Source: Escherichia coli
GTDB lineage: Bacteria > Pseudomonadota > Gammaproteobacteria > Enterobacterales > Enterobacteriaceae
Strand: one strand, 5' to 3'
Assembly: GCF_003334385.1 (NCBI RefSeq)
Contig: NZ_QOWN01000007.1
Length of the DNA: 64,000 nt
Shown here: in pieces, positions 61,535 to 61,843 of the stretch
How the letters are laid out: each line of letters starts with the position of its first letter
Position numbering within the stretch: position 1 is the stretch's first letter
Notes under the pieces: generated by a model
What the model saw: the letters and a program-made list of their open reading frames with translations, nothing else
What the model was told of the DNA's origin: nothing
The model's database searches: none
Program-made: the position numbers and the translations under genes

Positions 61535-61579
61535 CTGGTTATCCATACAGACAAAAATAACACCTGTACATAACCACAG
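61535..61579 (+). promoter_or_regulatory. Two candidate LexA (SOS) boxes upstream of the dinI-like gene
   Basis: CTG-N10-CAG patterns: ctggttatccatacag (61535-61550) and ctgtacataaccacag (61564-61579), the latter fitting CTGT-N8-ACAG; followed by RBS acaggaggg and ATG at 61595. Confidence 0.5.
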
Positions 61580-61594
61580 TTACAGGAGGGTGTT

Positions 61595-61843
61595 ATGCGT
61601 GTTGAGATCTGTATCGCTAAAGAAAAAATCAGCAAAATGCCAAAAGGTTCTGTTTCTGCCCTGCAGCAAGAAATGCTTCGACGTGTCAGTAAACGTTATG
61701 ACGAAGTGGACGTGATTGTCAGAGCCGCCAACAATGACAGTCTCACCATTTTAAGAGCTGTAGATAAAGAATCCGCGCACGAATTTGTTCAGGAAACACT
61801 GCAGGAAGCCTGGGAAACCGCTGACGACTGGTTTATTCGGTAA
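61595..61843 (+). CDS. DinI-family protein (82 aa), prophage-type
   Basis: [10 protein letters not shown]...AANNDSL...[12 protein letters not shown] aligns with E. coli DinI (MRIEVTIAK...AAANNLS...LQETWESADDWF) as I recall it. Confidence 0.8.

Follow-up and report, generated by a model that had tools for sequence, protein, structure and literature searches.

[quoted passage not shown] Nalidixic acid induced the dinI homologue 23-fold in Gifsy-1 and 14-fold in Gifsy-2 (PMC8072944), and the lexA3 mutation abolished Gifsy induction (PMC3121763; PMC8072944). [quoted passage not shown] The acidic helix of DinI itself binds RecA filaments and modulates RecA, according to the work summarized in PMC3121763 (its references 27-29), and the same summary credits Voloshin et al. 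(2001, reference 28 in that paper) with implicating this C-terminal helix in RecA binding. The chromosomal dinI gene of Salmonella is reported to be preceded by two boxes (PMC8072944). For the Stx1 phage VT1-Sakai (Sp15), the record AP000400 annotates a putative promoter, a LexA site ('putative SOS box') and the gene H0001, 'DNA-damage-inducible protein I', at the place homologous to the locus described here. The arrangement of a LexA-boxed dinI gene close to att has therefore been known since that annotation of 2000.

We analyzed a locus of this kind in a 64,000-nucleotide stretch of Escherichia coli DNA, referred to below as the window. We consider it likely that the locus is a LexA-controlled, monocistronic dinI moron with two operators, the product of which adds to the modulation of RecA.

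The dinI-like gene lies at the end of a prophage in mlrA

The gene (61595-61843, plus strand, stop codon at 61841-61843) encodes a protein of 82 amino acids. The original prediction had assigned the homologue of dinI to the edge of an inserted element, and the flanking sequences agree with this placement: the insertion in mlrA (yehV) is a lambdoid prophage, and the open reading frame begins 236 bp inside it. The 5' remnant of mlrA (61291-61359, plus strand) consists of 22 codons (61291-61356, translated as MALYTIGEVALLCDINPVTLRA) and a TGA codon (61357-61359) that is created at the phage junction. The same stretch is annotated in VT1-Sakai as yehV' cut by the prophage and by PGAP as an incomplete coding sequence in strain G6/7. 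The att core, CCTGTCACGTTACGCGCGTG (61339-61358), is common to phage and host and aligns to the 'attachment site of VT1-Sakai' (AP000400 8051-8070). Phage-specific DNA starts at 61359, and the records of the phages PhiR5_1 and BP-4795 start at the position equivalent to 61358/61359. A scan for terminators also found a terminator-like hairpin across the att junction (61341-61371, plus strand), with a stem of 8 pairs followed by the T-run CAACATTTTT, which may halt transcription coming from the mlrA promoter. VT1-Sakai shares with the window the integration into yehV/mlrA, the att core and the non-coding arm of 236 bp between the att core and the dinI reading frame. The two sequences are 84% identical over 61360-61843 and the encoded proteins 65% identical, but VT1-Sakai lacks the Eib-type adhesin cassette that is present in the window.

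The final 2.9 kb of the window is 100% identical in E. coli G1/2, G6/7 and G8 and 99.9% identical in 2018-166. In G6/7 the order of genes is btsR, btsS, the mlrA remnant and the dinI-like gene, beyond which two hypothetical genes, an adhesin gene with a YadA C-terminal domain (Eib-type), the tail fibre gene, J, and tail and head genes follow on the opposite strand. Judged by gene content, the dinI-bearing end corresponds to the tail-fibre side of a lambdoid prophage. At the other end of the G6/7 prophage, an integrase gene lies beside ompW, followed by yciC, yciB, yciA and tonB, and not beside mlrA. Given these differing ends, the G6/7 prophage seems from its gene order to be a chimera that arose when a large inversion joined a yehV-type prophage to an ompW-type one, and it is probably unable to excise. 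Its repressor is of the RacR type, and several of its structural genes are frameshifted.

The product had been assigned to the DinI family from its sequence, and the family profiles and the DinI structure agreed. It matched Pfam PF06183 (DinI) over the full length of the model (E = 2.2e-15, positions 1-63 of 63) and the structure of E. coli DinI (PDB 1GHH/7YWA; E = 1.6e-11) with residues 1-81 against structure residues 1-79. It also matched PHROG 189, 'RecA filament binding protein DinI' (E = 3.5e-25), although this profile has 151 positions and only its second half (71-149) is covered. The protein is 39% identical to K-12 DinI, with which it aligns end to end as a single domain, and its conserved acidic C-terminal helix aligns with LQEtWEsADDWF of DinI. 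The chromosomal K-12 gene (b1061) thus belongs to the same family as the gene in the window and shares with it the length and the C-terminal helix WE(S/T)ADDWF. The score against the NCBIfam DinI equivalog model NF007893 was 65.7 bits, below the cut-off of 111, and for this reason we regard the protein as a DinI-like paralogue; RefSeq names it 'DinI-like family protein' (WP_087893591.1). By analogy with DinI, we assume that this paralogue interacts with RecA.

Two LexA operators are predicted in the dinI promoter

Upstream of the gene, two CTG-N10-CAG sites had been proposed as SOS boxes: CTGGTTATCCATACAG (61535-61550) and CTGTACATAACCACAG (61564-61579), the latter fitting CTGT-N8-ACAG. Their coordinates, their distances to the dinI start codon and the pattern of the second site were exact when read against the sequence; the pair covers 60 to 16 nt before the ATG at 61595. 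Bare patterns of this type prove little. CTG-N10-CAG occurs 31 times in the window (14 expected) and CTGT-N8-ACAG twice (0.7 expected), and counting of the former was set aside as too permissive. We therefore used a symmetric position weight matrix derived from 18 published E. coli LexA sites (PMC3009722, Table 4), and the same 18 sites served to calculate the heterology index (HI) of Berg and von Hippel.

Scoring with a LexA matrix, the check suggested along with the original prediction, ranked the two sites second and fourth of 63,981 positions in the window and in the range of verified operators. The predicted distal operator, CACTGGTTATCCATACAGAC (61533-61552), scored about 14.4-14.6 bits with an HI of 10.55, and the predicted proximal operator, ACCTGTACATAACCACAGTT (61562-61581), scored about 11.1-11.8 bits with an HI of 9.0. 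The highest score belonged to AACTGGATAAAATTACAGGG at 42873, which we take to be the known molR SOS box and which served as an internal positive control for the matrix. The third-ranked match (18692, 13.4 bits) lies within the coding region of a sugar-binding regulator and is probably due to chance. Each of the two boxes upstream of dinI thus has the 16-bp CTG-N10-CAG palindrome within a 20-bp site together with an operator-like score, and both fall at the weak end of the range for LexA operators. For comparison, the verified polB, dinB, dinG and ftsK operators score 13.0-17.9 bits on the same matrix, and their HI values are 8.3-9.3 in-sample and 11.4-12.8 when these sites are left out of the matrix. 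The HI values of all 18 training sites, again in-sample, run from 0.27 to 9.29, such that both boxes are near the weakest training operators and below the limit of 15 that is customary for a LexA-repressed gene (PMC11002266). We also simulated 300 sequences of 64 kb with a first-order Markov model: sites scoring 11 bits or more arose 0.61 times per sequence, and a pair of such sites within 60 bp was seen in 0 of the 300.

The position of the boxes relative to the promoter is also that expected of repressor sites. A promoter scan gave TTGACA (61529-61534), an 18-nt spacer and AAAAAT (61553-61558) as the best sigma-70 match within 61250-62100 (10/12), and we take 61529-61558 on the plus strand as the predicted dinI promoter. 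The distal box starts inside the −35 hexamer, fills the spacer and stops one base short of the −10 hexamer, and the proximal box starts 4 nt past the predicted −10 hexamer and lies over the expected transcription start. LexA bound at either box would occlude this predicted promoter, the −10 hexamer of which is bracketed by the two putative operators. A Shine-Dalgarno sequence, AGGAGG, follows at 61584-61589 (plus strand), 5 nt before the ATG.

In VT1-Sakai, the equivalent 29 nt (TTGACA...TAAAAA) are annotated as 'putative promoter of H0001 and H0002' and contain the sequence of the distal box, which carries no SOS-box annotation in AP000400. The SOS box that is annotated there (AP000400 8263-8282, ACCTGTACATAACTACAGTT) is one substitution away from the proximal box of the window. 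The K-12 dinI box, ACCTGTATAAATAACCAGTA, starts with ACCTGT near the ribosome-binding site, as does the operator in the window; however, K-12 dinI is preceded by just one box, which is strong (21.2 bits, at −39), and its promoter does not align with that of the window. Gifsy-1 similarly has one strong box at −39 (25.2 bits) in place of two weaker ones.

Both boxes are conserved among prophage homologues

A scan of viral contigs identified 80 loci encoding relatives, and we compared 28 distinct upstream regions plus that of the window, with encoded proteins that are 61-100% identical. Both boxes were present in all 29 regions, the distal one at −61/−62 and the proximal one at −33. The same cassette from −35 box to stop codon, with boxes at about −61 and −33, is found in BP-4795, PhiR5_1, Stx2a, Stx2c and Stx1a phages, P-EibC and phiNP. 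An Stx2c phage has both boxes, as does the Citrobacter rodentium phage phiNP, in which the distal box lies at −60 and the protein is 54% identical. A LexA-controlled homologue of dinI occurs in 133 of 50,697 phage records and 633 of 5,426 complete E. coli genomes, and a single E. coli genome can have up to 4 copies of DinI-like paralogues. The two-box architecture is not universal: only one box, a strong one at −39, precedes the gene in Gifsy-1 and in a Klebsiella phage, and for the dinI homologue of the Yersinia phage YeP2, which sits directly behind another open reading frame, no LexA box was found within 300 bp upstream.

The boxes differ considerably in strength within the family. The distal box reaches 24.3 bits in relatives (for example TACTGTTTATCCATACAGTT) and the proximal box 24.2 bits (for example TACTGTATACAAACACAGTA). 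Most relatives, and most of the other phages with an att-proximal dinI gene, have near-consensus boxes of 20-24 bits, unlike the window with its boxes of about 11-15 bits. The weakest boxes of the family are those of the yehV-type lineage to which the window belongs, together with VT1-Sakai, PhiR5_1, BP-4795 and others.

To describe how the conservation is distributed, we calculated mean pairwise differences among 36 distinct sequences; since these are related to one another, the values are a footprint and not a formal test. The four CTG/CAG triplets and the −10 hexamer each differ by 0.009, the −35 hexamer by 0.057, the inner ten bases of the boxes by 0.142, the third codon positions of dinI by 0.265 and the sequence upstream of the −35 box by 0.50. 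The triplets of these related sequences therefore differ about 30 times less than the third codon positions. CTG and CAG are kept in both boxes in 34 of the 36 sequences; the distal box has lost CAG in BP-4795 and CTG in L015. The distance between the box centres ranges from 26 to 29 bp among homologues, which argues against strict helical phasing. By this footprint, the conserved triplets around variable inner bases look like operators rather than like neutral spacer.

These comparisons bear on whether both boxes work. The proximal box could be the single working operator, the distal box being conserved promoter spacer, or the roles could be reversed. AP000400 annotates the proximal site only, one box suffices in Gifsy-1 and the Klebsiella phage, and the Gifsy dinI homologues are listed with one box each in Table 1 of PMC8072944. 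The loss of a half-site triplet from the distal box in BP-4795 and L015 points in the same direction, and the variable spacing argues against obligatory cooperative binding. On the other hand, the distal box of the window scores above the proximal box (14.4 versus 11.8 bits), it is the distal box that attains 24.3 bits in relatives, and its triplets, conserved to the same degree as the proximal ones, surround inner bases that vary, which is the pattern of an operator. We therefore think a single working operator rather unlikely and favor two.

A further possibility is that the operators have decayed in the lineage of the window, leaving dinI constitutive or responsive to another signal and the boxes as relics. 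No other boxes of the family score as low as those of this lineage (14.6 and 11.1 bits, where most relatives have 20-24 bits), the sequence carries a 1-nt insertion, the proximal box lacks the TA flank in this lineage, and the prophage looks immobilized, with several frameshifted structural genes. Yet the same weak boxes are kept across the yehV-type group (VT1-Sakai, PhiR5_1, L009-L013, L028 and L039), the scores in the window overlap those of the accepted polB, dinB and dinG operators, the HI values are well under 15 (PMC11002266), and the accepted K-12 dinI box likewise begins with ACCTGT. Decay to relics is therefore improbable. With two weak but working operators, as we prefer to read them, the lower scores (about 11-15 versus 20-24 bits) suggest that repression in the lineage of the window is probably leakier or relieved earlier.

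Boundaries of the dinI cassette

Searches of phage and E. coli genomes with BLAST delimited the conserved unit. Many matches run from query position 169-170 (61528-61529 in the window, at the −35 box) to 479-484, where the coding sequence ends, and the homology between phages accordingly begins at the −35 box (61529) and stops at the stop codon. Upstream of the −35 box, the alignment of homologues shows three unrelated contexts. Downstream, the neighboring genes vary from phage to phage: PhiR5_1, P-EibC and L005 have an Eib-type cassette, like the window, BP-4795 has an avirulence-like gene and nleA (NleA effector genes), and phiNP has hicAB. In many phages, a ykgJ-like open reading frame lies behind a conserved hairpin downstream of dinI. 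The cassette is usually found at the end of the phage record, beside att.

The annotators of VT1-Sakai placed such a downstream ykgJ-like reading frame in the same operon as dinI, whereas in the window dinI is directly followed by a terminator. This predicted intrinsic terminator (61855-61884, plus strand) begins 12 nt past the dinI stop codon and consists of a GGGGAGT/ACTCCCC stem with a 6-nt loop, followed by ATTTTTTATT; its RNA fold has an energy of −13.6 kcal/mol (z = −4.97 versus shuffled sequences). The next three open reading frames (61880-62074, 62058-62531 and 62622-63947) are all on the minus strand. Because of the terminator and the opposite orientation of these neighbors, the dinI unit is predicted to be monocistronic. 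The original prediction had also proposed that the cargo of the element is coupled to the SOS response. With a strong terminator and convergent neighbors, this tie is limited to dinI itself and does not extend to the remaining cargo. Taken with the predicted promoter of its own, homology boundaries that match the cassette and the differing neighbors, the promoter, two putative LexA operators, dinI-like gene and terminator have the organization of a self-contained moron at the end of the P arm of attP. An Rfam scan of 61000-62600 for 3'-UTR or intergenic RNA, such as an sRNA resembling DinR, returned only a match to 5_ureB_sRNA inside the dinI coding sequence, which at 21 bits was below the gathering score of 40 and was treated as due to chance.

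The Gifsy phages are alike in having a prophage homologue of dinI immediately preceded by a LexA box, and theirs is the one case in which the LexA dependence and the induction by damage were demonstrated by experiment. The encoded proteins are 37.5% identical. The Gifsy gene is internal to the prophage, downstream of replication genes, whereas the gene in the window lies 236 bp from the att core, past tail-fibre and cargo genes. It is also followed in Gifsy by an anti-repressor gene that triggers induction, while no co-transcribed gene follows dinI in the window. Because of this missing gene, we rejected a dinI-antirepressor operon of the Gifsy type for this locus.

Proposed regulation and function

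In an undamaged lysogen, we propose that host LexA dimers would occupy both operators, one in the spacer between the −35 and −10 hexamers and one over the start site, and would block RNA polymerase. DNA damage would activate RecA and lead to self-cleavage of LexA, the promoter would open, and the 82-amino acid DinI-like protein would be made. By analogy with chromosomal DinI, the acidic C-terminal helix of this paralogue would then bind RecA filaments and modulate their co-protease activity, so that the phage protein would act as an extra dosage in the feedback loop of the host. LexA binding and damage induction at the dinI promoter of the window, RecA binding by the paralogue and any effect on prophage induction are what we infer. 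The original prediction had noted that phage DinI homologues can influence prophage induction; the one direct test that we found, with the dinI deletions in Gifsy-1 and Gifsy-3, showed no significant effect (PMC3121763). Literature searches and the supplements of a transcriptome paper on ciprofloxacin-treated EDL933 yielded no binding or expression data for E. coli prophage copies of dinI.

The protein might instead act mainly in an anti-repressor or other induction pathway, still under LexA control but not on RecA. The models for such a role are the DinI-like half of Tum of phage 186 and the Gifsy dinI-antirepressor operon, and DinI homology is found next to anti-repressors, or fused with them, in phage 186, PSP3 and Gifsy (PMC3121763). 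In addition, the repressor of the resident prophage is of the RacR type, which PMC3121763 groups with the non-cleavable repressors, and the protein matches only the second half of PHROG 189 (71-149 of 151). However, a partner gene is missing, with a terminator 12 nt past the stop codon and neighbors that converge on it, and the protein has the size of DinI and aligns with it from end to end, the RecA-binding helix included. We regard this alternative as very improbable and retain a LexA-controlled dinI moron whose product would act on RecA.

Among the lambdoid prophages of E. coli, Stx phages included, a dinI homologue under LexA control belongs to the standard accessory genes, and the one described here is a real and well-supported feature of a well-known kind that matters little beyond correct annotation. 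What the analysis adds is that the att-proximal lineage of E. coli and Citrobacter has two predicted operators around the −10 hexamer, against one annotated in AP000400, that the cassette is bounded exactly by the −35 box and the stop codon, and that the operators are markedly weakened in the mlrA-integrating lineage. Should the phage copies modulate RecA, the inducibility of Stx and other prophages could depend on the dosage of these copies and on the strength of their operators. That phage DinI dampens the induction of Stx phages has already been suggested in print (PMC8456039).

Direct repeats in the attP arm

Between the att core and the dinI promoter, the arm contains four phased 11-bp direct repeats, GTGTCCCATAC, two copies of ATGCCCCATTG, and ATGCCCCATAA (61472-61515, plus strand). 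Tandem Repeats Finder (TRF) reported a period of 11, 2.8 copies and a 100% match, corresponding to three perfect copies. The motif GTGTCCCATgtATGCCCCATAA recurs at the int end of VT1-Sakai, where it lies 54 bp away from the att core in the form GTGTCCCAT-nn-ATGCCCCATAA, and for this reason the repeats are probably, on sequence grounds, arm-type sites for integrase in the P arm of attP. In G6/7, the motif is absent from the integrase end of the prophage, which is of the ompW type.

The array is outside the dinI module, but the promoter and operators are only about 13 bp away. Bound LexA might impede the excisive intasome, or its removal might allow the intasome to assemble, and conversely Int on the arm sites might affect dinI transcription; in both cases excision would be SOS-gated and independent of the phage repressor. 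In a milder version, several DinI-like paralogues in multi-lysogens would jointly set the RecA* threshold for induction of Stx phages. Since the operators lie outside the array and away from the core, a direct architectural role is unlikely, and we find either version of this idea very doubtful beside a dinI moron that is regulated by LexA in its own right. The number of 11-bp copies differs between the related phages, with two in VT1-Sakai and PhiR5_1, three in the window and four in BP-4795.

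Repeats between the att core and dinI, and a hairpin across the att junction

Four phased 11-bp direct repeats (GTGTCCCATAC, two copies of ATGCCCCATTG, and ATGCCCCATAA) occupy positions 61472-61515, and the array ends 13 bp before the −35 box of dinI. The number of copies varies from 2 to 4 among related phages. The same two-unit 11-bp repeat motif is present at the integrase end of VT1-Sakai, the Stx1 phage inserted at yehV, with 54 bp separating it from the att core there. The repeats are probably arm-type binding sites for the integrase in the P arm of attP. Additional short repeats in the arm between att and dinI were found at 61376-61392 and 61439-61465; the arm contains 2.7 copies of TCGACGAACT as well as the near-palindrome CGACGAAGATCGTCC. 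Excisionase, IHF or other recombination proteins may bind at these short repeats. A terminator-like hairpin followed by a T-run (61341-61371) spans the junction of the att core with phage DNA, and may keep transcripts started at the mlrA promoter from running on into the prophage.

Other matches to the LexA matrix

The best match to the LexA matrix in the whole window was AACTGGATAAAATTACAGGG at 42873-42892 (16.8 bits), which we take to be the known molR SOS box and which was used as an internal positive control for the matrix. The third-ranking match, AACTGGAAGAGTTAACAGCA (18692-18711, 13.4 bits), lies within the 3' part of a gene for a sugar-binding transcriptional regulator (18004-18945) and is probably a chance occurrence.

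Relatives of the dinI locus and the adjacent cargo

A DinI-like protein 99% identical to that of the window is encoded in L005 (IMG/VR UViG_3300029590_000282). The gene has the same cassette downstream as in the window but a different upstream context. At 1140-1210 its two LexA boxes are far stronger, scoring 24.3 and 16.9 bits, and the sequence between them seems to contain a mosaic junction. Many relatives have a conserved hairpin (GGCTGG...CCAGCC) after dinI, together with a ykgJ-like cysteine-cluster ORF on the same strand (L037, 1747-2215; likewise L002, L020, L044 and L066), and the VT1-Sakai annotation assigns this ORF to the dinI operon. Neither the hairpin nor the ORF is present in the window.

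In the window, dinI converges on a minus-strand cargo cassette (61880-63947) encoding a 64-amino acid ORF (phrog_9340), a 157-amino acid ORF of unknown function (phrog_6585), and a 441-amino acid trimeric autotransporter with a YadA C-terminal domain. Phage PhiR5_1 has the same arrangement, and the P-EibC fragment of ECOR-9 carries a 92% identical version of the neighbouring dinI, which points to an Eib-type immunoglobulin-binding adhesin.

The prophage of strain G6/7

In G6/7, an E. coli strain with an identical window end, the dinI end of the prophage abuts mlrA while its integrase end adjoins ompW, followed by yciC, yciB, yciA and tonB (L086, 30546-32347, past the end of the window). This combination implies that a large stretch of the chromosome was inverted between a yehV-type and an ompW-type prophage. 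In the resulting chimera the att arms are mismatched, and it probably cannot excise. Its portal, terminase and tape-measure genes carry frameshifts. An ompC-type porin gene was also observed amid the tail genes, between L and the M/tape-measure region (L001, 32089-33252, past the window).
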